A stretch of DNA of 64,000 nt, taken from Cyclobacteriaceae bacterium. Its GTDB lineage: Bacteria > Bacteroidota > Bacteroidia > Cytophagales > Cyclobacteriaceae. Position 1 is the stretch's first letter. Each line of letters opens with the position of its first letter. Positions 51,681-64,000 of this stretch are shown piece by piece. Both the position numbers and the translations under genes were made by a program. The stretch is taken from the NCBI GenBank assembly GCA_040222275.1, contig JAVKDJ010000013.1, positions 176,504 through 240,503 on the forward strand, in the 5' to 3' direction. The notes under the pieces are model-generated. The model ran no database searches, had not been told where the DNA came from, and was given only the letters and a program-made list of their open reading frames with translations.

Positions 51681-52541
51681 TCACAGATCTACTTCCAGGG
51701 GCTTGTTGGACCGGATGCTTACTACAGGCACTTTGGAGTGCGAAATAATGCGCTTTGCTTTTGGCGACACCCACAAATCTGACCACCGAAAACCCGGCCT
51801 GCTCATAATTACTACCAGGTCTATATCAGCCTGCTCGGTGTAGGCGGAAATGGCGGCAGGTAGCGTGCCCGGGTACAGTCCATTCGATACCACCTCAATG
51901 TTGCGATGGTTGAGGTCATTTCTCAGCTCGTTGAGTTGCTGCTGTAGCTGGTCATGGTCTTCCTTGTGCTCAGAGGCAGATACCAGGTGCACCCTGGCAC
52001 CAAACTGTTCGGCAAGGGAAGTGGCGAAAGGCACTTTGTACATGCTACCTTCACTCAAATCCAGTGGCACCAGTATGTTTTTCATTTTCGGCTGGGTAGG
52101 TATTTGTGTAAAAGTGAAAACCGGGCAAGGTGATTCCAAAACTACCTTGTAGGCATTGGTGCTCCTCAGGTGGAGCTCCCAATCATCCATATCCGGTAGT
52201 CCGTGGCTCCTCATTACTATAAAGTCGATATCGTTTTCAGCTACAAATTCTACAATATGATCATAAATAGGCTTTTCCAACCCACGAATCTGAAGGTCAA
52301 TTTTTTTGATGTCAGGGTATGTTTTTTGGATGTCGAGCAGTTTGGGGCGTAGTTGCTGCTCCACCATATCCGCAAGTTCTTTGCGAAACTCGTCTTTGGA
52401 ATGATAATCTTTGGGATTGGCCAGATGGAGGGCCGTGATTTTAGCACCAATGCCAGAAGCAAACATGGCGGCATATTCCAGCGCACCGATGGACTTCATG
52501 TTGTCATCAAAGGGAACCAATATTTTCTTAAAAGTTGACAT
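51681..52541 (-). CDS. Tandem universal stress protein
   Basis: Two USP domains: KKILVPFD and KNILVPLD; SPCPV and SKVPV ends. Confidence 0.88.
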   Translation of the reverse strand: MSTFKKILVPFDDNMKSIGALEYAAMFASGIGAKITALHLANPKDYHSKDEFRKELADMVEQQLRPKLLDIQKTYPDIKKIDLQIRGLEKPIYDHIVEFVAENDIDFIVMRSHGLPDMDDWELHLRSTNAYKVVLESPCPVFTFTQIPTQPKMKNILVPLDLSEGSMYKVPFATSLAEQFGARVHLVSASEHKEDHDQLQQQLNELRNDLNHRNIEVVSNGLYPGTLPAAISAYTEQADIDLVVIMSRPGFRWSDLWVSPKAKRIISHSKVPVVSIRSNKPLEVDL

Positions 52542-52740
52542 CTATGCTACGTTTTCATTTTCTTGTAAAACCAATCCGACCATGTTCGCGATTAAATACT
52601 GAATGTTTCCAACCGGCTTTGTAAAATAAATAAATTTTAGTTCGGAAACATGGCACTTTTAGCGTTCGTCACAAACCCCGCCCGATAAAGATACGAATTG
52701 ACCCGGCAACCCAAAGGCAGTGCTTGATTTTTATAGGTTC

Positions 52741-52766
52741 TGACGGGTTAATCTCATTTGGTCACT
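52741..52766 (-). promoter_or_regulatory. ECF-type promoter motif upstream of usp
   Basis: Minus strand AGTGACC-N15-GTCA, same spacing as 55959 and 62210. Confidence 0.5.
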
Positions 52767-53104
52767 TTTTTTAAGTGATTTCGGGGTAATATCATTTTAA
52801 AAAAAACAATAAAAACCGTTCCCGGCCTTCGCTGGGACAAGCTATTCAGGGGCTTTGTCCAGGGATGTGTCAGGCCAAAGCCGTAGGAATCTCCTCCTTG
52901 CGGGCTCCTACGCCCTTTTCTCACACCCATCCTTATAAAAAGGACTCTGAGTGATGATATAGTGGGTTTTTATCGTTTTTTAAGCCGAATTCAGCTTTAA
53001 ACCGATTTCATTCAGAAAGCCAAACACCTTCACCGGTACCATCTTGCATGATCTTGTAAGTTTTCGATTAAATTAGCAACTCTACTACACCAAGTTGCAT
53101 AGCA

Positions 53105-54100
53105 GTGAATAACCACAAGAGTTTTGCCGGGTCTAAAAACTTTCTCCTTGCCATCATAGAAGGGGCACCTTATGGTATTATTGCCATCGACCCACAGGGC
53201 ATCATCACCATAGCCAATGCCCAGGCACTGTTGCACCTTGACTTGGGTGTAGCCGTACAGGATGTATTGCACACAAATATCCTGGATGTGCTGGGTGATA
53301 TGGATGAACTAACGAAACAAATCCATAAAAGCCTTGCCCGGGGGCGCACTGGTTTTGACCTGGAGGAATTTTACAGAAAGGGCAAGTACCTTGCATTGCG
53401 GGGCAGAAAGATGGAAGAAGGAATGATCATTACCATAGCCGATATTTCATCCATCAAAGAATCGGAACACATGGCCATGAATGCCTTGCTGGAAGGGCAG
53501 GAGCAGGAGCGCAAGAGGCTCGCACGCGAAATCCATGATGGCATTGGCCCTATACTTTCCACAGTTAAAATGAACCTTTCGGGCATTGAGGACGAAATAG
53601 AAACGCTCAACCACAGCCTTGGTGAAAAATTCCGCAAATCCTACAGCATGATAGATGAAGCGGCCAATGACCTGAGGTCCATTTCCCACAACCTCATGCC
53701 CAAATTGTTGTCGGATTTTGGGTTGGTAGAGGCCCTGGAGACCCATTGCGAAAAAATCAATGACACCAGGGGCATAGCAGTGGATTTTATCCATTCCGGT
53801 AAAGTGGGGCGCCTGGATATGGTAACGGAGCTGGCCCTGTACAGGATCAGTCAGGAACTCATCAACAATACCCTGAAGTATGCCATGGCCAAAAAAATCA
53901 CATTGCAACTGATCAAACGTGACGCCAATATCCAACTCATGTATGAAGATGATGGCCAGGGGTTCAACCACAAGAAGGTGCACAAAGGGCTGGGGTTGAT
54001 GAACATTGAAAACCGCACCAAGGCACTGGCCGGAGAAGTAGTGATCGACTCACAACCGGGCAAGGGCATGACAGCTACTATAGAAATACCATTGAATTGA
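53105..54100 (+). CDS. Soluble PAS sensor kinase (HisKA_3)
   Basis: N-terminal PAS, ERKRLAREIHD, YEDDGQG, GLGL; no TM segment. Confidence 0.9.
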   Translation: MNNHKSFAGSKNFLLAIIEGAPYGIIAIDPQGIITIANAQALLHLDLGVAVQDVLHTNILDVLGDMDELTKQIHKSLARGRTGFDLEEFYRKGKYLALRGRKMEEGMIITIADISSIKESEHMAMNALLEGQEQERKRLAREIHDGIGPILSTVKMNLSGIEDEIETLNHSLGEKFRKSYSMIDEAANDLRSISHNLMPKLLSDFGLVEALETHCEKINDTRGIAVDFIHSGKVGRLDMVTELALYRISQELINNTLKYAMAKKITLQLIKRDANIQLMYEDDGQGFNHKKVHKGLGLMNIENRTKALAGEVVIDSQPGKGMTATIEIPLN

Positions 54101-54759
54101 AACGCATGAAGCAGATAAAAATACTCATAGCAGACGACCATAAGATATTCAGGGAGGGCCTGGCCGAACTTTTGGGCAAAGAAAAGCACCTGAAGGTAGT
54201 AGCAGGTGTAGGCAGTGGGGCTGAGGTACACCAAGTAATGCAAGAGCAGGAAGTGGACCTCATACTTATGGACATTGATATGGGCGAAACCAATGGGATT
54301 GAGATTACTGCAGAAATAAAAAAAATATACCCCGAGGTGAAGGTACTCACCCTGTCCATGCATGGCGAGAAGAACTACATTTTGAAAATGCTGGAGGCAG
54401 GTGCCAATGGTTATATCCTGAAGAATGCCGGTAAGGAGGAGATGGTCAATGCCATACAGACAGCAGCCGAAGGCAACACCTATTTCAGCAGCCAGGTGTC
54501 TGCAAAGCTCCTTGAGCACCTTTCCAACCCCGGAGGGGCCAGTAAGAAAAAACAGGAGGACACACCACTGACCGACAGGGAAATCGAAGTACTCATTTTG
54601 ATCTCAGAAGAATACTCCAACCCGGAGATAGCTGAAAAGTTGTTCATCAGTGTGAGGACAGTAGATACCCACCGACGAAACCTCCTGGACAAACTGGGAG
54701 TGAAAAACACGGCGGGCCTGGTAAAGTATGCCATTCAAAAAGGGTTGCTAGATAATTAA
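54097..54759 (+). CDS. NarL/LuxR response regulator
   Basis: ADDH, LMDIDM, LTDREIEV, TVDTHRRNLLDKL. Confidence 0.93.
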   Translation: MKRMKQIKILIADDHKIFREGLAELLGKEKHLKVVAGVGSGAEVHQVMQEQEVDLILMDIDMGETNGIEITAEIKKIYPEVKVLTLSMHGEKNYILKMLEAGANGYILKNAGKEEMVNAIQTAAEGNTYFSSQVSAKLLEHLSNPGGASKKKQEDTPLTDREIEVLILISEEYSNPEIAEKLFISVRTVDTHRRNLLDKLGVKNTAGLVKYAIQKGLLDN

Positions 54760-54863
54760 AGCCAAGCCTTCACTTCGAAATCCAAGTCCGATCTAACATT
54801 TGACCAAAAACCCGTTTCCACTACAGTTGACGTCATTCAAGAAAAAACTGACTACAACCGGTA

Positions 54864-55070
54864 CGCTGGTGCGAGCCCAATGTCGTTAAGTTAAGTTGAA
54901 CCGTCATCGCGAGGAATCGAAGCGATCTCATCAAAATGGACAGATAACATTAAACAGAAAGACTGCCGCGCTGCGCTCGCAGAGACGAAAAACTTAACTT
55001 AACGACATTGGGTGCGAGCCTTTGGCTCGTATCTGGGTTAATGGATACGAGCCAAAGGCTCGCACCAGCG
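54864..55070. repeat. REP-like perfect hairpin (27-bp arms), left arm interrupted by a MITE
   Basis: Removing the insert restores cgctggtgcgagcctttggctcgtatc-N10-gatacgagccaaaggctcgcaccagcg. Confidence 0.85.
54878..55010. mobile_element. 133-bp MITE with 20-bp TIRs and 10-bp target-site duplication
   Basis: caatgtcgttaagttaagtt (54878-54897) / aacttaacttaacgacattg (54991-55010); ggtgcgagcc at 54868-54877 and 55011-55020. Confidence 0.9.
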
Positions 55071-55211
55071 ATATTGTCATCTCAATTTGTTCATTTTACA
55101 ACACCAAAATGTAAGGTCTCAGAATAACGAATTTTTGTTGGATTTTAAGGTCACAACCCCGGACCGAAAGTTTCAATAAAGATGCCTGGCCTACGCAATT
55201 TACCTATGCCC

Positions 55212-55281
55212 TAAGTGATTTTTATCCCCTATCCGCTATAAGGCCGCTTTTTCAATTTACGCCTTTACGCTCTTATATTTG
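55212..55281 (+). promoter_or_regulatory. ECF sigma gene promoter with candidate NarL-type site
   Basis: TAAGTGA-N6-TCCCCTA imperfect inverted repeat at 55212-55231; -7 box TATATTTG at 55274-55281. Confidence 0.45.
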
Positions 55282-55332
55282 GCAGGTATTCCACCCAATT
55301 TAGCATCGTCAAAATTTATCTTTTACTTACTG

Positions 55333-55908
55333 ATGAAGCCAAAAAAGCAAAACCAAACAACGGACGAACAACTGATCAAACAATTTCAACAAGGCGACCA
55401 ATTGGCCATGGGGGAGCTGTATTCACGCTACTATATGCTGGTGTTTGCCAAAAGTTTGTCTTTTGTAAAAAACACGGATGATGCCGCCGACCTGGCCCAG
55501 GACATTATGTTGCGGGTGATGGAAAAGGCAGGGACATTTAAGCAGGAATCAAAGTTTTCTACCTGGTTGTATGCCATTACTTTCAACTATTGCACCGATA
55601 GGGTAAGAAAAAACAAAAACAGGTATTATGAGTATATGGACGTCCTCGATTCCCATATCGATCACAGCACCGAAGATCAGGATTTGGTTTTTGAAAATGA
55701 AACCAAAGAAAAAGTGGCGGAGGAAGCCCTGATGGCTATATCGCGCGAAGACCATGAATTGTTGCTGATGAAATACCAACTCAACAAATCGATCCATGAA
55801 CTACAGTCCATCTACAACCTTTCTGCCAGTGCTGTGAAAATGCGCCTGATGAGGGCCCGGGAGAAGGCTGCCACCATTTACAACGCATATTCACTGGGAG
55901 CAGCCTGA
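55333..55908 (+). CDS. ECF sigma factor
   Basis: DAADLAQD, FSTWLYAIT region 2; SAVKMRLMRAR region 4. Confidence 0.92.
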   Translation: MKPKKQNQTTDEQLIKQFQQGDQLAMGELYSRYYMLVFAKSLSFVKNTDDAADLAQDIMLRVMEKAGTFKQESKFSTWLYAITFNYCTDRVRKNKNRYYEYMDVLDSHIDHSTEDQDLVFENETKEKVAEEALMAISREDHELLLMKYQLNKSIHELQSIYNLSASAVKMRLMRAREKAATIYNAYSLGAA

Positions 55909-55958
55909 TATACGAACATACCGCATACCGCAGCTTCACTGGATATTTCATTTAGTCA

Positions 55959-55984
55959 TGTGACCGGTTGAATTATTTACGTCT
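55959..55984 (+). promoter_or_regulatory. ECF-type promoter motif
   Basis: TGTGACC-N15-GTCT, 29 nt before the ATG at 56013. Confidence 0.6.
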
Positions 55985-56012
55985 AAATGTTTAAATTTAA
56001 AACTAACAAAAA

Positions 56013-56495
56013 ATGAAAAGTATTTTTTCTATCCTAATGTTACTCGGAGTAGTGGCATACGGAGCAAATGAGGGAGCACCGAAAGTAGTTTCAAAAGCAT
56101 TTTCAACCAAGTACAAAGGAGCAGAAAATGTCTATTGGGTAGTTGAACAGGGCAATCATCAGGTATCATTTGAGCATGAAAATTTCACAAAAGAGGCGAC
56201 CTTTAAAAAGGACGGAACATGGGTGATGACAGTGACCACATTGGACACGGAAGATTTGATGACCTGTATCAATGATGTGCTCAACGATGACTATTTTGGC
56301 CCTGTAGTATTGGATGCAGAATTTGTGGAAAAACCGGATTCGGAGAAATACTACATTACCATAGAAGATGCCGAAGAATTTGTAGAAGATGAAGAGGGTG
56401 ACGAAGAAGGTGTCGAGGAAGAAATCTCATACATCCGACTGGTATTCGCCTCAGACTGTGAATTCCTTGGTGAAGAGCAACTTGCAGATAATTAA
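56013..56495 (+). CDS. Secreted, highly acidic PepSY-like (BLIP-like) protein
   Basis: Signal peptide, APKVVSKAFSTKY..W, EATFKKDGTWV; E/D-rich tail. Confidence 0.7.
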   Translation: MKSIFSILMLLGVVAYGANEGAPKVVSKAFSTKYKGAENVYWVVEQGNHQVSFEHENFTKEATFKKDGTWVMTVTTLDTEDLMTCINDVLNDDYFGPVVLDAEFVEKPDSEKYYITIEDAEEFVEDEEGDEEGVEEEISYIRLVFASDCEFLGEEQLADN

Positions 56496-56512
56496 GTGAG
56501 CCGTAAGGTATA

Positions 56513-57589
56513 ATGGACGAAAAAAAAGAGGACAAACCACAAAAAAACCAGGTAAGTCAAAATGCCATCTCACAGGAGTCTAAAAAACTCAGTGAGATGG
56601 TAAAAGACCAGAAACTCTCCCTGCTGGATAGGATTGAGTGCTACGAAGACATCATCAATATTGAAGTAGGGGATACCGCTTTATTGCGCGCCAGAAACAT
56701 AGAGCGCGAAGCAGGGGTGAGGCAACTCTTTATGAAATTCGAAGGGGGCAACCCCACCGGCACCCAAAAGGACCGCATAGCTTTCGCCCAATGCCATGAT
56801 GCCCTCCGGCGCGGATACGATACCATTACTGTAGCCACCTGTGGCAACTATGGTGCATCTGTGGCGCTGGCTGCCAGTCTGGCGGGTTTGCGTTGTATTA
56901 TTTTTATTCCGGAAAACTACCACACTCTTCGTGTGGTGGAAATGGAAAATGTAGGTAGCGAAGTACACCGGGTCAAGGGTTTGTATGAGGACAGTGTAAA
57001 CCATTCCAGTGAACAGGCCAGTATCAACCGGTGGTATGATGCCAACCCCGGAGCGGTCAATACCCCCTTGCAAATCATAGCCTATGCAGAAATTGCCAAT
57101 GAAATTTATGACCAACTAAGGGACGCCCCCAAGGTGGTGTCAGTGCCCGTTTCCAACGGTACTTTATTGGCTGGGGTCTATCGTGGGTTTGTAAGCCTGT
57201 ACAAAAGGGGCAAGACCTCAAGGGTGCCGCTTATGGTTGCTTCTTCTTCCACGAGGAAAAACCCTATCATCTATTCGTTCAAGAAAGGCCTGGACTACTG
57301 TGCCGACCTGGTACCGGAGAAAATAAAGGAAACTGCTGTGAACGAACCCCTGATCAACTGGCACAGCTTCGATGGCGAAGAGGCACTTTATGCCATAAGG
57401 GAATCCAAAGGTGGGGCATACAACATCAGCGATGAAAAAATGCTAAAGACATCAAAATTATTAAAGGAAAAAGAAGGACTACATGTGCTGCCAGCATCGG
57501 TGGCCGGGTTGGTGGCCCTGTTGGAAATGGACAAGGAGAAAGACCTGGAGCCAGACCGATATGTAGCGATTTTAACAAGCAGAAAATGA
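56513..57589 (+). CDS. Fold-type II PLP enzyme (threonine synthase-like)
   Basis: KFEGGNPTGTQKDR PLP lysine, TCGNYG, VPVSNG. Confidence 0.88.
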   Translation: MDEKKEDKPQKNQVSQNAISQESKKLSEMVKDQKLSLLDRIECYEDIINIEVGDTALLRARNIEREAGVRQLFMKFEGGNPTGTQKDRIAFAQCHDALRRGYDTITVATCGNYGASVALAASLAGLRCIIFIPENYHTLRVVEMENVGSEVHRVKGLYEDSVNHSSEQASINRWYDANPGAVNTPLQIIAYAEIANEIYDQLRDAPKVVSVPVSNGTLLAGVYRGFVSLYKRGKTSRVPLMVASSSTRKNPIIYSFKKGLDYCADLVPEKIKETAVNEPLINWHSFDGEEALYAIRESKGGAYNISDEKMLKTSKLLKEKEGLHVLPASVAGLVALLEMDKEKDLEPDRYVAILTSRK

Positions 57590-58644
57590 AAAAAACAATA
57601 GACGGCAAAGCAATAGTGTATTGCGAAGGTGCATTCAATACCCCCAATGGCAAAACAGCCCATGGGCTGGTAAGGTTTACCGAAAGATATGAGGTGATGG
57701 GGGTAATAGACCCCACCTACGCCGGGCAGGACGCCGGGGAAGTACTGGATGGTAAAAAGAATGGCATACCGGTTTTTTCAAGTTTTGCTGATGCCTGGAA
57801 AAACCTCACCGATATAAGGTGTTTTGTCATTGGCCTTGCACCCGATGGCGGGCGATTGCCTGCCCAGGCCCGTGCTGTTATACAAGAAGCGCTGGAAATG
57901 GGATTGAATGTTGATTCAGGTTTGCACGATTTTTTGTACAAAGATGAAAAGCTTGTGGCTTTGGCCAAAAAAAATGGTTGCAGAATCCGGGACATCAGGC
58001 GCACCCCGGAGCGCGACGAGCTTCATTTCTTTTCCGGGAAAATAGAAAAAGTGGACTGTTTGAAATTGGCCGTATTGGGCACGGATTCAGCTGTGGGCAA
58101 AAGGACTACAGCCTGGATTATTGTACATGGGTTAAGGCAGGGGGGCAGGAAAGCAGAGATGATCGGTACAGGCCAGACAGGCTGGATGCAGGGGGCAAAG
58201 TATTCCATGGTGATGGATTCACTGATCAACGATTTTGTGTCAGGGGAAATCGAACATGCCGTCTATGAAGCCTGGAAAAACGAATCCCCGGATGCCATAG
58301 TCATAGAGGGGCAGGGTAGCCTGATGAACCCAGCCTATCCCGGTGGGTTCGAAATACTGGCTGCCGGAAGGCCCGATTATGTCATTTTGCAGCACGCCCC
58401 CAGAAGGCTGGAATACGATGGCTTTCCGGGATACCCCATTCAGCCACTCAATGAACAAATAGCGGCCATAGAAATGATTTCTGGCAAAAAAGTATTGGCC
58501 ATTACCCTGAACCATGAAGGTATGGAAAAAAATGAGATCGAATGGGAATGTGATAAAATTACAGTGGACACTGGACTCCTGTGCACTGATGTATTACACG
58601 ACGGGCCGGGGAAACTTGTCGGATTGATAAAGAAATACCTGTGA
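57586..58644 (+). CDS. DUF1611 / DgcN-like D-glutamate N-acetyltransferase family
   Basis: GKTAHGL, NVDSGLH, GTDSAVGKRTT, TGQTG, IEGQGSL. Confidence 0.85.
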   Translation: MKKTIDGKAIVYCEGAFNTPNGKTAHGLVRFTERYEVMGVIDPTYAGQDAGEVLDGKKNGIPVFSSFADAWKNLTDIRCFVIGLAPDGGRLPAQARAVIQEALEMGLNVDSGLHDFLYKDEKLVALAKKNGCRIRDIRRTPERDELHFFSGKIEKVDCLKLAVLGTDSAVGKRTTAWIIVHGLRQGGRKAEMIGTGQTGWMQGAKYSMVMDSLINDFVSGEIEHAVYEAWKNESPDAIVIEGQGSLMNPAYPGGFEILAAGRPDYVILQHAPRRLEYDGFPGYPIQPLNEQIAAIEMISGKKVLAITLNHEGMEKNEIEWECDKITVDTGLLCTDVLHDGPGKLVGLIKKYL

Positions 58645-60995
58645 AAGCATCTGTAGATACCAAAGAAGGTATTGGCCTGAGGGAGTTTGTCACCTTCAGG
58701 CAATTGAAGGCAGGGCCGGTGGTACTGGAAGCCAAAAGGGTAAAGGTACCTTATACACTCACCATGCACGATGGAGCCACCGTATCCAATGAACTGATCT
58801 ACACCTATTCGGAAAAAGTATTTGACAAAAACCGGCAGGAAGATGTCAACCTCGCCTCTATGATGGGTGTGCAGGTGGCGATGAACTATGGCCTGTTTTG
58901 TGAGGAAATGGTTTTCGATGGGATTTTTGATGATGCCGATCAGCGTTTTATCCTCGACATGGTGGAGAACACCTCCAGGGAGATTTATGTCAATAAACTA
59001 TTGGTGCCCAATGAGTTTTTAAAACAGGGATATGAAAAAGTAAAGGTTGAAAAATTTAAAAGATATACTGCAGCAAAAATCTTTTTTACCAATACCGATT
59101 TTAAGGCTGAAGAAGATACCTGGAACCTCTCGCCAACAGGCAAGGAAGAATATGTAATATTGAGCAGCGGGGGCAAGGACAGCCTGCTGAGCTATGGTGT
59201 GATAAAAGACCTGGGGCATGGTGCCCACCCGGTTTTTATCAATGAGTCCGGGCGTCACTGGTTTACGGCTATCAATGCCTTCAAACACATGGAAGGGATA
59301 GAACCCAATACATCTCGGGTGTGGTGCAATAGCGACAGGGTTTTCAACTGGATGCTGCGCCAGATGCCGTTCATTCGGGAAAATTTCGCCGATATCCGGG
59401 CAGATATTTATCCCATCAGGCTTTGGACTGTGGCCGTTTTCCTGTTTGGTGTATTGCCTATTGCACGAAAAAGAAAAGTGGGCAACATCCTTATTGGGGA
59501 TGAGTACGATACTACACTCAAACTCAACCATGAGGGCATCACCCACTATGGAGGGCTGTACGACCAGAGCAAGTATTTTGACAATGCCCTTACCCGTTAC
59601 TATATGAAAAAAGGGTGGGGCATCCATCAGTTTTCCATACTAAGGAGCCTCTCCGAATTGCTGATCCTTAAAATCCTGGTAAAAAGGTACCCTGACCTGC
59701 AGGCCCAGCAGGTATCGTGCCATGCAGCCCATGAGAAAAACGGCAGGATATACCCATGTGGCAATTGTGAAAAATGCAGGCGGATTGTAGGGATGCTTTC
59801 AGTTTTGGGTGAAGACCCCCGAAACTGTGGGTATTCCGACGAACAAATAGCCAGGGCTTTCAAGTCGCTGGAAGCCAAAAAAGTGAAACAAATCGGACAG
59901 GATGCGGCACACCTTTTTCACTTGTTGTTGGAAAAAGGCTTGGTGGAAAACAACGAGCACACCCGAAAACTGGCAAAGCCACATGAGCAAATATTGAAAC
60001 TGCGCTTCGATAATGAGCGCAGTATGATGGCGGATTTGCCCACAGGGATCAGAAAGCCACTGTTTGAGCTATTTCTCCATTATAGCAATGGGGCCGTAAA
60101 GCTAAAAGACCGAAAATGGGAAGATGTGGACCCTTTTCAAAATGGCCTGATCAATGCAACCTACCCTTTTGAAATAAAAAGGACAAACCCAAAAACGATG
60201 AATTCTTCAAATGTCAACAACTACCACTGGGAATCGCTCACCTGGAAGGAACTGGAAGAGCGCCTGAAAATTGTGGATACGGCCATCCTGCCTTGTGGGG
60301 CTATAGAGCAGCATGGGCCACACCTGCCTGTGGATATAGATTATTTCGATGCTGTCTATCTGGCCAACAAGGTGGTGGAGGCATGTAGCGACCCCAAGCC
60401 CTTTGTATTGCCACCGATCCCCTATGGTGTGTCTTATCATCATGAGGAATTTAAAGGTACCCTGAGTGTGACCAACGATGCACTCTCAAGGTTTGTTTAT
60501 GACATTGGCATGGGGCTGGCAAAAAACGGTATCAAAAAATTGATCATACTCAATGGCCATGGTGACAATGCACCGACACTGAGTTATGCAGCACAAATGA
60601 TCAATAGGGATGCAGAGATTTTCGTATGTGTCGATACCGGCGAAACCAGTGATATCGACCTCAATGATTTGATCGAAACCCCCAACGACATCCATGCCGG
60701 GGAGATTGAGACCAGTACTACATTGGCCATCAGGCCCGAAGTAGTGCAAATGGACAAGGCGGTAAATGAAACCCTCAATTTCGGCAGCAAATACCTTGAT
60801 TATACTTCCGACAGGGGAGTGGCCTGGTATGTCCGCACCAAAAGGATTTCAGCCAGCGGGGTAATGGGAGACCCTACCAAAGCCACGGAACAAAAAGGCA
60901 AAAAGATGTGGGAGATAATGGTGGCACACCTCGTCAAGTTTGTTGAGGAAGTGAAAAAAAGCAAGCTGGAGGATTTGTATCAAAGAAAATACTAA
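58641..60995 (+). CDS. Fusion: QueC/MurL-like PP-loop ATPase + creatininase-family amidohydrolase
   Basis: SSGGKDS; SC-x12-CGNCEKC; then EQHGPHLP, YGVSYHH, NGHGDN, HAGEIETS. Confidence 0.8.
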   Translation: MKASVDTKEGIGLREFVTFRQLKAGPVVLEAKRVKVPYTLTMHDGATVSNELIYTYSEKVFDKNRQEDVNLASMMGVQVAMNYGLFCEEMVFDGIFDDADQRFILDMVENTSREIYVNKLLVPNEFLKQGYEKVKVEKFKRYTAAKIFFTNTDFKAEEDTWNLSPTGKEEYVILSSGGKDSLLSYGVIKDLGHGAHPVFINESGRHWFTAINAFKHMEGIEPNTSRVWCNSDRVFNWMLRQMPFIRENFADIRADIYPIRLWTVAVFLFGVLPIARKRKVGNILIGDEYDTTLKLNHEGITHYGGLYDQSKYFDNALTRYYMKKGWGIHQFSILRSLSELLILKILVKRYPDLQAQQVSCHAAHEKNGRIYPCGNCEKCRRIVGMLSVLGEDPRNCGYSDEQIARAFKSLEAKKVKQIGQDAAHLFHLLLEKGLVENNEHTRKLAKPHEQILKLRFDNERSMMADLPTGIRKPLFELFLHYSNGAVKLKDRKWEDVDPFQNGLINATYPFEIKRTNPKTMNSSNVNNYHWESLTWKELEERLKIVDTAILPCGAIEQHGPHLPVDIDYFDAVYLANKVVEACSDPKPFVLPPIPYGVSYHHEEFKGTLSVTNDALSRFVYDIGMGLAKNGIKKLIILNGHGDNAPTLSYAAQMINRDAEIFVCVDTGETSDIDLNDLIETPNDIHAGEIETSTTLAIRPEVVQMDKAVNETLNFGSKYLDYTSDRGVAWYVRTKRISASGVMGDPTKATEQKGKKMWEIMVAHLVKFVEEVKKSKLEDLYQRKY

Positions 60996-60996
60996 G

Positions 60997-62058
60997 ATGA
61001 AAATCGTTTCTGCCGAATGCTGGTGTGAAAACCTGCGCCTGATGGAGCCTTATACCATCGCCTACGAATCCATTGATGAGGCCAGCAATGTATTTATAAA
61101 AATCAATACGGACCAGGGGCATATTGGCTGGGGCTGTGCTGCCCCAGATCTGGAAGTGACCGGCGAAACTGGCGAAACGGTGCTCAATGCTTTCAAAAAG
61201 GTAATAGAACCGTTTCTGACAGGAAGGGATCCTTTCCATTATGCCCGTATTTTAGAAGAACTTAAAAAACTCTTAAAAAATCAACCATCAGCCTTGGCGA
61301 TGGTGGACACCGCCCTGTTCGACCTGATCGGAAAAAAGGCCCAGGAGCCGGTGTACCGATTGCTCGGTGGCTATAGGGCAAGCATTCCCACAAGCGTGAC
61401 CATCGGGATACTTCCACTGGCGGAAACCCTGGAAAAAGCCCGCGACTTTATGGCCCAGGGGTTTACCATCCTCAAAGTAAAGGGGGGCAAAAGCATGGAA
61501 GAAGATGTGGAGCGTGTTATACGGTTGAGGGAAATGCTTGGCAAGGGCGTGGAATTGCGCTTTGATGCCAATCAGGGCTTCACGGTAGCCCAGTCCGTTG
61601 CGTTTATCGAGCAAACCAAACACATCCATATAGAATTGCTCGAACAACCCACACAAAAGGAAAATGCCGACCTGTTGAAGCAGGTAAGCAACCAGGTACC
61701 TGTACCTGTAATGGCAGACGAAAGCATCATGACATTGAAAGATGTATTTCACCTCACCCGCCACAATTGTACAGATATGATCAATATCAAACTGATGAAA
61801 GTCGGGGGGATTGCTGAGGCACTTCGGATCAATGCCGTGGCAATGGCTGCCAATGTGGAAACCATGGTGGGTTGCATGGACGAATCTGCCATGGGGATAG
61901 CCGCAGGTTTACATTTTGCATTGGCCCGTCCCAACATCCTATACGCAGACCTTGACGGGCATTTCGACCTCCTTGATGACCCCTTTGCTACAATGATCCG
62001 ATGTGAAAAGGGTGTACTCTACCCATCTGAGGCACCAGGGTTTGGGTGGAAAAAATAA
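60997..62058 (+). CDS. Enolase-superfamily dipeptide epimerase / DgcA-like racemase
   Basis: KVKGG, FDANQG, EQP, DES, NIKLMKVGG, DLDG. Confidence 0.9.
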   Translation: MKIVSAECWCENLRLMEPYTIAYESIDEASNVFIKINTDQGHIGWGCAAPDLEVTGETGETVLNAFKKVIEPFLTGRDPFHYARILEELKKLLKNQPSALAMVDTALFDLIGKKAQEPVYRLLGGYRASIPTSVTIGILPLAETLEKARDFMAQGFTILKVKGGKSMEEDVERVIRLREMLGKGVELRFDANQGFTVAQSVAFIEQTKHIHIELLEQPTQKENADLLKQVSNQVPVPVMADESIMTLKDVFHLTRHNCTDMINIKLMKVGGIAEALRINAVAMAANVETMVGCMDESAMGIAAGLHFALARPNILYADLDGHFDLLDDPFATMIRCEKGVLYPSEAPGFGWKK

Positions 62059-62151
62059 TCCGTATGAATTTTAATAAGTCCACATTTTAGGTTAGGTAAA
62101 ATTCACATACCTAAAAATAAGATAACAACCGTTTGCCATTAACGTTTCCCA

Positions 62152-62193
62152 CCTAACACCTAACACCTAACACCTAACACCTACCATCCAACA
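62152..62193. repeat. Heptamer tandem repeat (CCTAACA x4 + 2 degenerate)
   Basis: cctaaca cctaaca cctaaca cctaaca cctacca tccaaca. Confidence 0.85.
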
Positions 62194-62209
62194 ATATTTA
62201 AAATTTATA

Positions 62210-62235
62210 TGTGACCATTCCCAATTTTTCAGTCA
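62210..62235 (+). promoter_or_regulatory. ECF-type promoter motif
   Basis: TGTGACC-N15-GTCA. Confidence 0.55.
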
Positions 62236-62318
62236 AAAGCTAAACAACATTAATCCAAGGGAGTGGGCGCCATGTGTCGCGAGCCTGGCGCTGCTTAAAA
62301 AATTAAAACTAAACCATT

Positions 62319-63011
62319 ATGAAGCTGAAATTTGAAGTACATGTGCGCTCAGTTTTGGAAATTCAGGAGTTGCCGGATGCATGGACCAGCGAAGATTACA
62401 AAAACCTGCTCGAACTGGCCGACTTTGAAGACTGGGACGAAATAGACGAATCGGAGTTGAAGGATTATACTGTCATGGCCTTGCAGGACCTGGAAGAGGA
62501 GGAAGCCGCAACCATTGTGCTCGGCTATAAGTTTCAGGGCCGGCTCACTAAAGGGCAAATACAAAGCATAGTATATGACATGATGGAAGTAAACATCTGG
62601 GAAGAATACCAGAATATTGGCTTTCACCAGGATTTGTACAACTGTGCCGTGTTGCTTCGGTCGGTTTTTCCAAAGAAATTCCCAGAAACAGATGCAGTAA
62701 AATGTGTGGTGGCAGTTGATCCACTCGATCAGGCAGCAGAAAAGGCTTTGCTACAACCAGACAAAACCCTGCTTGTGCGGTTGCTGGCTGATGGTATGAC
62801 CGATCATGCCGTCATCAAGCGTTTGTTTGACGATCAACTGGCGGGAGGTGCTTTTCCTGAAGCCGAACATATTATATGGCATTTTGATAGTGAATTTCTG
62901 GGAAAGAAAGCGATTTTTACTATCTTTTCTTCATGGTATTGGCTAAGGCCATTGGACGAAGTATCAAACTATACATCTGGGGCAAACGCAAGCCCAACAA
63001 AAACAGGATAA
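62319..63011 (+). CDS. Conserved hypothetical acidic protein
   Basis: 230-aa ORF with normal codon usage; no family recognised. Confidence 0.65.
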   Translation: MKLKFEVHVRSVLEIQELPDAWTSEDYKNLLELADFEDWDEIDESELKDYTVMALQDLEEEEAATIVLGYKFQGRLTKGQIQSIVYDMMEVNIWEEYQNIGFHQDLYNCAVLLRSVFPKKFPETDAVKCVVAVDPLDQAAEKALLQPDKTLLVRLLADGMTDHAVIKRLFDDQLAGGAFPEAEHIIWHFDSEFLGKKAIFTIFSSWYWLRPLDEVSNYTSGANASPTKTG

Positions 63012-63036
63012 ATTGGAATTAGAACCGAGCTACGCA

Positions 63037-64000
63037 ATGGATGGATTTAAAATTGGCCTCACGGTCATTTTTATTATCCTGAATGGTTTTTTTGTAGCTG
63101 CAGAGTTTGCACTGGTAAAGATCAGCAAGAGCAAACTAAAGGTAATGATGAATGAGGGCAGGCCATTTGCCGTCACCGCCATGTGGCTTTTTAAAAGGCA
63201 AAACCTGGCCCTATCCGCTTGTCAGTTGGGTATTACCATGGCTTCCCTGGCACTTGGCTGGATAGGCGAGCCGGCCATTGCACATTTGATTACCCCAGTT
63301 ATTTATGATATGGGCATCACCTCTGAGGGGCTCATCCACGGTATTGCTTTCACCATCGCCTTTACCCTCATTACTGCATTTCATATCGTTATAGGTGAGC
63401 AGGTGCCCAAGATTTATGCCATTAGAAAACCAGGAATCGTGTTTTTGGGCTGTGCCTGGCTACTAAAAGGATTTTATGTGGTACTCTACCCATTTATGTA
63501 TGTACTCAATTCTATTACCAACGTTTTTTTGAAATGGCTGGGAATAGAAGATTCTGACGAGCACGACACACCGTTGACCGAAGAAGAAATCAGGGCTTCC
63601 CTGAGCATTGCCCACGCTAAAGGGGAACTATCCAAAAACGAGCATAAGCTGTTAAATGCCGTATTCAGGTTCGATGACGAAGTGGCACGACAGATCATGG
63701 AGCCGCGGAGCGAGGTGGAATACATGGACATCAACCGTTCATTCGCTGACAACCTCGAGTTCGCCAGGCAGTCCAAGCATACCAGGTTTCCCCTGTGCGA
63801 AGGCTCGTTGGACAAATTGCTGGGCGTAGTGCATATCAAGGACATCATTGGTTACGATGCAGACGATCATGTGGATTTGAGCACTTTTGTCCGTCAGCCG
63901 ATGCTCATTCCGGAAAACATCCTGATAGGCCGGCTGCTCCAGGAGTTTAGGCTGGCCAGGCAACATTTTGCCTTTGTGCAGGACGAGCATGGTACCATTC
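63037..64000 (+). CDS. CNNM/HlyC-CorC family (DUF21-CBS) protein, truncated by the window end
   Basis: NGFFVAAEFALV, CQLGITMASLALGWIGEP, GEQVPK, HTRFPLC, QDEHG; absent from the ORF track because no stop is in the window. Confidence 0.9.
   Translation, partial: MDGFKIGLTVIFIILNGFFVAAEFALVKISKSKLKVMMNEGRPFAVTAMWLFKRQNLALSACQLGITMASLALGWIGEPAIAHLITPVIYDMGITSEGLIHGIAFTIAFTLITAFHIVIGEQVPKIYAIRKPGIVFLGCAWLLKGFYVVLYPFMYVLNSITNVFLKWLGIEDSDEHDTPLTEEEIRASLSIAHAKGELSKNEHKLLNAVFRFDDEVARQIMEPRSEVEYMDINRSFADNLEFARQSKHTRFPLCEGSLDKLLGVVHIKDIIGYDADDHVDLSTFVRQPMLIPENILIGRLLQEFRLARQHFAFVQDEHGTI

Follow-up and report, generated by a model that had tools for sequence, protein, structure and literature searches.

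Three copies of a bipartite motif around an ECF sigma factor gene are probable promoters of a putatively two-component-controlled regulon in a Cyclobacteriaceae genome

A stretch of 64,000 nucleotides (nt) from a Cyclobacteriaceae bacterium (assembly GCA_040222275.1, contig JAVKDJ010000013.1, positions 176,504 to 240,503; hereafter the window) contains a gene for a sigma factor of the extracytoplasmic function (ECF) type and, around it, three copies of one bipartite sequence, GTGACC-N15-GTC (Table 1). An earlier, sequence-only reading of the window took these copies for promoters of a single ECF type, read by the neighbouring sigma factor and joining their genes in one programme. Our analysis supports the core of that proposal: we hold it to be probable, and with good confidence, that the three sequences are ECF core promoters read by RNA polymerase carrying this sigma factor, that they belong to a regulon of at least six promoters and that the regulon is switched by a two-component system. 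The case is built on syntenic conservation, diverged spacers, fixed spacing, an ECF-like −10 element and the co-occurrence of motif and sigma gene. In the mechanism that we propose, a soluble PAS-HisKA_3 kinase would signal to a NarL-type response regulator, which would act at dyad boxes ahead of the housekeeping-type −7 box of the sigma gene and so control its transcription; the sigma factor, as part of RNA polymerase, would in turn serve the regulon by recognising a −35 element, TGTGACY, and a −10 element, CGTCtnAA, with 14 variable bases between them.

Within the 64 kb the pattern GTGACC-N15-GTC has exactly three matches: one on the reverse strand (52742-52765) and two on the forward strand (55960-55983 and 62211-62234). 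Shuffled windows contain on average 0.23 matches and none of 100 shuffles reaches three; the flanking T or A described in the earlier reading is likewise present. All three copies are intergenic and each is co-oriented with the gene downstream of it: copy A with usp, copy B with an operon that begins PepSY-PALP-DUF1611 and copy C with a unit composed of a hypothetical gene (hyp) and a CNNM gene. Annotation and orientation thus bear out the gene content and the targets that had been proposed. Copy B lies in the 104-nt gap 3′ of the sigma stop codon and 30 nt ahead of the ATG of the PepSY-like gene, with a predicted transcription start at ∼55988-55993; when this gap is aligned over five genomes the only invariant columns are TGTGAC and CG. 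Copy A is separated from the usp ATG by a leader of 201 nt (predicted start ∼52732-52737) and copy C from its unit by 85 nt (predicted start ∼62239-62244).

The genome that carries the window (G000; 7 Mb, 43% G+C) was scanned over 13.9 million positions with a weight matrix derived solely from 26 sites in other genomes. The four highest ranks are held by the three window sites (scores in Table 1) and one further site (25.5); the fifth position scores 18.1, and ∼0.17 positions are expected by chance at a score of 23 or more. For a wider alignment 31 sites were drawn from nine genomes, and conservation was counted at those positions that had not been used in finding the sites. The resulting consensus is aTGTGACY-N14-CGTCtnAA: A at position +26 is present in all 31 sites, C or T (Y) at +5 in 30, C at +20 and A at +27 in 26 each, T at −1 in 22 and T at +24 in 20. 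The spacing is restricted. In 203 kb of sigma-linked loci 34 matches have a spacer of 15 and four have a spacer of 16, these four being intergenic and co-oriented with a gene; for each remaining length between 9 and 20 there is one match at most.

Orthologs of the sigma factor are uncommon: two clear cases were found among 40 relatives, and about sixty clusters of more than 50% identity in a large protein collection. A protein search across the order, with eight candidates scored per genome, returned few orthologs; look-ups in metagenomes and assemblies were more productive, and for some of the loci gene starts were taken from simple open-frame listings. With the exception of R. agarivorans, discussed below, there are two to six copies of the motif per 20-kb locus around orthologs that are 55-87% identical (G001, G003, G004 and L019 to L024). 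These copies precede the same or functionally similar genes, and their spacers have diverged. A site stands ahead of usp in L021, G001, G003 and G004; the copy B operon carries the motif in L020, L021, L022, L023 (with an N16 spacer), L024, G001 and G004; and a homologous unit (354-residue protein, hyp and CNNM) is preceded by a site in G001 and G003. The arrangement extends to distant homologs, in two of which (G012, 37% identity; G324, 43%) a site follows the sigma stop codon directly, just as copy B does.

A homolog of 43% identity from Carboxylicivirga (locus L033) shows a variant: its best site, at 675 on the forward strand, has GTTACC in place of GTGACC and precedes an operon of polyamine type, encoding a CN_hydrolase-family enzyme, an arginine/ornithine decarboxylase, an arginase-family enzyme and a deoxyhypusine synthase. 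It may be that −35 specificity has drifted here together with the sigma factor.

The position of the motif relative to genes indicates what kind of element it is. Each of the 39 sites checked lies between genes and points at the gene that follows. A median of 33 nt separates the end of the site from the ATG (interquartile range 25-60), and for 30 of the 39 the distance is no more than 60 nt. A distance this short leaves no space for a separate core promoter downstream, which argues that the motif is the core promoter itself and not an upstream activator site. In form, too, it is an ECF-type promoter: it has two parts in the −35/−10 arrangement, a fixed spacer and a −10 element containing CGT(C). 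The 5′ half, TGTGAC, is one base off the TGTAAC and TGAAAC −35 elements of Bacillus ECF sigma factors (the promoters of B. subtilis sigmaW, sigmaX and sigmaM have TGAAAC or TGTAAC, a spacer of N16-17, and CGTA or CGAC). The 3′ half, (C)GTCTnA, is similar to the −10 element of E. coli sigmaE promoters (GGAACTT-N16-TCTRA) and to the CGT box. The latter is regarded as a hallmark of ECF promoters in Bacteroidetes and is found in the SM6 motif of Flavobacterium psychrophilum (PMC9723704). Except for an unusual GAC in its −35 element, the predicted promoter is typical of the ECF kind. A scan of the E. coli type for promoters and terminators, a model ill-suited to Bacteroidota, gave no excess over shuffles.

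We infer from association that the sigma factor reading this promoter is the one encoded beside it. The motif accompanies the sigma gene in different genera and families. Each of the four genomes of the genus that carry the sigma locus has two or three matches to the strict pattern, and G002, without a sigma ortholog, has none; 36 other genomes have 10 in total. Sites also lie ahead of the sigma leader in L020 and, in L019, L020 and L022, ahead of the signalling operon that adjoins the sigma gene on its 5′ side.

In G002 the sigma ortholog, the motif cluster and an antiporter target described below are missing together, a pattern that suggests an accessory module within the genus, acquired or lost in one piece.

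Several observations weigh against this assignment, and some of them against the motif being a promoter at all. In a genome scan of the kind proposed in the earlier reading, the genome as a whole has 15 matches to the bare consensus in 7 Mb, a number similar to that for other spacings and thus not an enrichment. In addition, a reversed-genome control reaches a matrix score of 23.1. Both results favour the view that the three matches are chance occurrences in AT-rich intergenic DNA. Because the bare consensus is not enriched, the significance of the motif is judged not from raw counts but from its clustering and position, the additional conserved bases and its conservation in other genomes; the clustering, the matrix ranks, the invariance of unselected positions, the spacer specificity (34 matches against 0-1) and the syntenic conservation refute chance, to which we give practically no credence. 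(A suspected depletion of spurious matches at spacing 15 was also considered and dropped: the count is inside the spread of other spacings.) A further point against the assignment is the GAC of the −35 element, where most ECF promoters have AAC. The promoters might be genuine and yet be read by another ECF sigma factor, or by several whose specificities overlap: many other ECF sigma factors are encoded in the genome, with dozens of sigma-like candidates; overlap between ECF regulons is known (PMC9723704); and the adjacent sigma gene itself lacks the motif, whereas most ECF sigma factors autoregulate. Such a sigma factor would have to be reconciled with an adjacency of sigma gene and motif that persists over more than 12 genomes and down to 37-47% identity, with the lack of sites in the one genus member that has no ortholog, and with the sites placed ahead of the sigma leader or of the signalling operon upstream of it. 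We judge it unlikely.

The two-component system presents the more pointed difficulty. The kinase-regulator pair accompanies the motif in every positive locus; its co-occurrence with the motif is as tight as that of the sigma factor, and association alone cannot separate the two. Moreover, the sigma and PALP locus of R. agarivorans has no site, and good sites are found elsewhere in that genome beside a HisKA_3 kinase, PPK2 and usp, adjoining the kinase and not the sigma gene. (With a sigma factor and no motif nearby, this genome looks at first sight like a counter-example; the good sites at the second locus speak against that.) The motif could accordingly be an operator of the NarL-type regulator, which would activate or repress the genes directly. 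The properties of the motif itself fit such an operator poorly. It is asymmetric, and NarL/LuxR regulators normally bind dyads; it occurs in a single orientation in 39 of 39 cases, at a distance from the ATG into which no downstream core promoter fits; its 3′ half is an ECF-type −10 element; and a separate array of phased dyads suited to the regulator exists upstream of the sigma gene. An operator function is on balance very unlikely, and recognition by the adjacent sigma factor remains the reading that we prefer.

The reach of the sigma factor appears to exceed its neighbourhood. The sequence-only reading had spoken of a local regulon of three units, which proves too narrow: at least three further promoters are located on another contig, C72. 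The fourth site found by the matrix (C72:160575, reverse strand) lies 21 nt ahead of a gene for a 536-residue L,D-transpeptidase, which is followed by an M15-like peptidase. The ortholog of the transpeptidase in G001 (69% identical; Scaffold, PG-binding and YkuD domains) also has a site. The other two form a back-to-back pair with 16-nt spacers. One (C72:173729, reverse strand) lies 37 nt ahead of a gene for a 424-residue protein, Na+/H+-antiporter-like by inspection only; the other (C72:173749, forward strand) lies 36 nt ahead of a gene for a 1333-residue permease fusion whose N-terminus resembles an amino-acid or cation-chloride permease. The same divergent arrangement is found in G001, G003 and G004, and the unusual N16 spacer of the antiporter site is kept in these three genomes as well as in G000; G002 has no antiporter ortholog. 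Two of the three C72 promoters, those of the transpeptidase and the antiporter, are thus conserved in relatives. In G001 these genes are on the contig of the sigma locus, 14-20 kb away from it, and in G004 they are ∼22 kb away, which indicates that the module has been split up in the present genome.

In this genome the regulon accordingly comprises at least six promoters, three in the window and three on C72. Taken over all the genomes, the motif also stands ahead of additional Usp genes and of genes for HSP20, CorA, CNNM, an MscS-like channel, PPK2, a PEP-utilising enzyme and RimK-related proteins. The theme is one of ion homeostasis, osmotic protection and envelope remodelling, and looks like that of a response to ionic, osmotic or envelope stress.

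In several Cytophagales genomes the motif heads an operon of a small open reading frame, a STAS gene and a HATPase_c_2+SpoIIE fusion (an RsbW-like kinase joined to a PP2C phosphatase), followed by the kinase and the regulator (L019, 6395-9835; L020, 6104-9591; L022, 5207-8797). This operon would be a self-induced partner-switching layer. No STAS/PP2C partner-switching genes are present in the window's own locus.

How is the sigma gene itself controlled? A matrix scan of the locus found no motif before the sigma, kinase or regulator genes in G000, L021, G001 and G004 (the Reichenbachiella clade), and the sigma factor is thus not autoregulated here. Searches with Pfam and NCBIfam among the genes neighbouring the sigma gene gave no match to an anti-sigma family, and the gene 3′ of it varies from one genome to another (PepSY-like, PALP, a lone receiver or small open reading frames); an anti-sigma factor that is divergent in sequence or encoded elsewhere would escape such searches. 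The 5′ side of the sigma gene is well conserved: over ten genomes the 150 nt upstream of the sigma start have a mean column identity of 60% and are about as conserved as the protein. Three elements stand out in this leader (Table 1). The first is a set of three phased imperfect dyad boxes, putatively binding sites of the response regulator; with a matrix built from other genomes, box 1 takes fourth place in this genome. (The box matrix was too unspecific for further targets of the regulator to be named from a scan of the genome.) The second is a −7 box, TATATTTG, which follows a T-rich block and is likely to be the core promoter of the sigma gene; the consensus for the sigmaA −7 box of Bacteroidetes is TAnnTTTG (PMC9723704). 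The third is a 16-mer that persists where the sigma proteins share only 55-64% identity, and that is distinct from the TGTGACY...CGTC motif.

The HisKA_3 kinase and the GerE regulator remain linked to the sigma gene in most loci, down to homologs of 43-47% identity. With no anti-sigma factor found, no motif of its own and a conserved leader that contains dyads and a −7 box, a two-component switch is the most likely arrangement, and the sigma gene is probably turned on by the adjacent system.

A long nested inverted-repeat element (54864-55070), resembling a miniature inverted-repeat transposable element or a repetitive extragenic palindrome, is situated after the stop codon of the regulator gene and before the sigma leader; it lies just 5′ of the dyad boxes, which, from 55191 onward, are intact. 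An Rfam scan of the interval from 49 to 64 kb gave only spurious microRNA-like matches, on a perfect hairpin at 55007-55070. The gap between regulator and sigma gene is 573 nt in the window, as against 387 nt in L021, an 84%-identical relative.

Table 1. Motif copies, leader elements and genes around the sigma factor gene (positions in the window).
Feature	Position	Strand	Description
Promoter copy A (usp)	52738..52766	-	aGTGACC-N14-CGTCagAA; matrix score 23.1
Promoter copy B (PepSY operon)	55959..55987	+	tGTGACC-N14-CGTCtaAA; matrix score 26.8, best position of the genome
Promoter copy C (hyp-CNNM)	62210..62238	+	tGTGACC-N14-AGTCaaAA; matrix score 24.5
Three phased imperfect dyad boxes, CTACGcAAnTTnCGTAc	55191..55245	+	∼20 bp phasing; conserved in 10 genomes
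−7 box, TATATTTG	55274..55281	+	matches Bacteroidetes sigmaA TAnnTTTG; conserved alignment block
16-mer, AATTTAGCATCGTCAA	55297..55312	+	sigma leader, 20-35 nt 5′ of ATG; near-invariant in 9 of 10 genomes
usp	51681-52541	-	tandem-domain universal stress protein, 286 residues; Pfam Usp 4.7e-31; copy A target
Sensor histidine kinase	53105-54100	+	PAS, HisKA_3 and HATPase_c domains (Pfam)
NarL/LuxR-family response regulator	54097-54759	+	receiver and GerE helix-turn-helix
ECF (group 4) sigma factor	55333-55908	+	191 residues; Pfam Sigma70_r2 and r4_2
PepSY-PALP-DUF1611-fusion-epimerase operon	56013..62058	+	predicted to be driven by copy B
PepSY-like exported protein	56013-56495	+	heads copy B operon
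PALP (threonine-synthase-like) enzyme	56513-57589	+	copy B operon
DUF1611 (DgcN-like)	57586-58644	+	copy B operon
Creatininase-domain fusion	58641-60995	+	784 residues; copy B operon
MR_MLE enzyme	60997-62058	+	L-Ala-D/L-Glu-epimerase-like; copy B operon
hyp	62319-63011	+	230-residue acidic protein without recognised family; first gene of copy C unit (62319..63999)
CNNM/CorC-type transporter	from 63013	+	copy C unit; runs past window end

The sigma protein, whose closest database neighbours are from Reichenbachiella species (Cytophagales), was assigned to the ECF group (group 4) by the possession of sigma-2 and sigma-4 domains only and a length of ∼170-220 residues. PF04542 matches with 55.9 bits and the NCBIfam sigma70-ECF model TIGR02937 with 76.6 (cut-off 42.9); the score for PF08281, 23.8 bits, is just below the cut-off here, and this domain is recorded in most orthologs. 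A hydropathy scan of the kinase gave no membrane segment, as expected of a soluble protein.

Some further features of the target units deserve mention. In the 784-residue protein of the copy B operon the family match (a creatininase/MftE-like amidohydrolase) is confined to the C-terminal third, and the first ∼530 residues are without a Pfam match; the protein is kept inside the motif-driven operon in most genomes. A tandem heptamer repeat (four CACCTAA and one CACCTAC, 62150-62184) has its end 25 nt 5′ of the copy C −35 element, and a change in repeat number could alter the context of that promoter. The usp leader (52541-52738, reverse strand) is ∼200 nt long in the window and in L021 and ∼40-60 nt in G001 and G004. 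It contains no notable open frame. Because its folding does not surpass that of shuffled sequences (z = +0.76), the idea of a riboswitch in it was dropped.

Taken together, these analyses describe a stress regulon that is real, if fairly ordinary, and more extensive than was first thought; its regulatory layout is of a known kind made of different parts. An uncharacterised ECF sigma factor of marine Cytophagales gains a precise candidate promoter (TGTGACY-N14-CGTCtnAA), a regulon (six promoters, with a core shared across genera) and, as its likely input, a soluble two-component system instead of an anti-sigma factor. The enigmatic operon of PALP, DUF1611, creatininase-fusion and epimerase genes is tied to Usp, ion transporters and an L,D-transpeptidase, and thereby to a context of ionic, osmotic or envelope stress. 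The pair of sigma factor and promoter is compact and, with four strong N15 sites in 7 Mb, seems highly specific; it may serve as an orthogonal expression switch. To our knowledge, no general-stress sigma factor has been established in Bacteroidota. It is conceivable, and we offer this as a speculation that is rather less than probable, that the present sigma factor is the master regulator of a general ionic and osmotic stress response in Cytophagales, perhaps in Bacteroidota more widely. It would act without an anti-sigma factor, at a level set by the soluble PAS-HisKA_3/NarL system and in many genomes also tuned by a STAS/PP2C-RsbW-like pair under the sigma factor's own control, and it would govern Usp, HSP20, Mg2+ and Na+ transporters, mechanosensitive channels, PPK2, L,D-transpeptidase and the PALP-DUF1611-epimerase pathway.

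The promoter and its control can each be set beside known systems. With canonical ECF promoters the motif shares the two-part −35/−10 structure, a fixed spacer, a CGTC/GTCTnA −10 element and proximity to the gene start; it differs from them in a −35 core of GTGACY (GAC, not AAC) and in the strictness of its spacing (N15 in 34 cases, N16 in four).

As to control, the known layouts in which an ECF sigma factor has no anti-sigma factor and an adjacent two-component system are ECF39, ECF32 and the predicted group ECF234 (PMC7826278; PMC8999054); among two-component-linked ECF groups none is described as Bacteroidetes-derived in the text of PMC7826278. The closest parallel is the sigmaE-CseABC system of Streptomyces coelicolor (ECF39), which has no anti-sigma factor and in which the sigma gene is transcribed on the command of the adjacent two-component system (PMC6767563; PMC7826278). 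The promoter of sigE is not itself a sigmaE target, and the regulon includes L,D-transpeptidases and envelope functions (PMC6767563). The system described here appears alike: no anti-sigma factor was found among the neighbours of the sigma gene, a two-component system adjoins it and may command its transcription, it is not its own target, and an L,D-transpeptidase is in the predicted regulon. The differences are that it belongs to another phylum, that the gene order is histidine kinase, response regulator, sigma and not sigE-cseA-cseB-cseC, and that the targets are mostly ion transporters and Usp genes. CseB is a regulator of the OmpR type, and the regulator here is of the NarL type. CseC is anchored in the membrane (PMC6767563), whereas the PAS-HisKA_3 kinase is soluble. 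With a NarL/GerE regulator and a soluble HisKA_3 kinase the present system is an analogue of ECF39 and not a member, and phylogenetic membership of the sigma factor in that group is unlikely. For ECF234 a DNA-binding regulator system beside the sigma gene and the lack of an anti-sigma factor have been described (PMC7826278); its representative is from Paenibacillus and its conserved context is an ABC transporter (PMC8999054). The loci studied here, unlike those of ECF234, contain no ABC transporter.

In the content of its regulon (Usp, small heat-shock and ion-homeostasis genes) the system resembles general stress responses such as the alphaproteobacterial EcfG-NepR-PhyR and the Bacillus sigmaB-RsbV/RsbW/RsbU pathway, and the STAS and HATPase_c_2+SpoIIE genes of L019, L020 and L022 add partner-switching parts like those of the latter. 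It departs from the general stress systems in that the sigma factor is of the ECF type and not the sigmaB type, and in the lack of partner-switching genes at the window locus. Nor is it an EcfG system: the output domain of the regulator is a GerE helix-turn-helix, and neither a PhyR-like sigma mimic nor a NepR-like gene was found in the loci. From within Bacteroidota, the PorXY-SigP system of Porphyromonas gingivalis provides a precedent for a two-component system that works through an ECF sigma factor without a classical anti-sigma factor (PMC7826278). There, SigP is stabilised through direct contact with the PorX protein, and type IX secretion genes are the targets; here, a GerE regulator is combined with dyads before the sigma gene. 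The DNA-binding domain and the dyad boxes point to control that is, unlike that of SigP by PorX, transcriptional.

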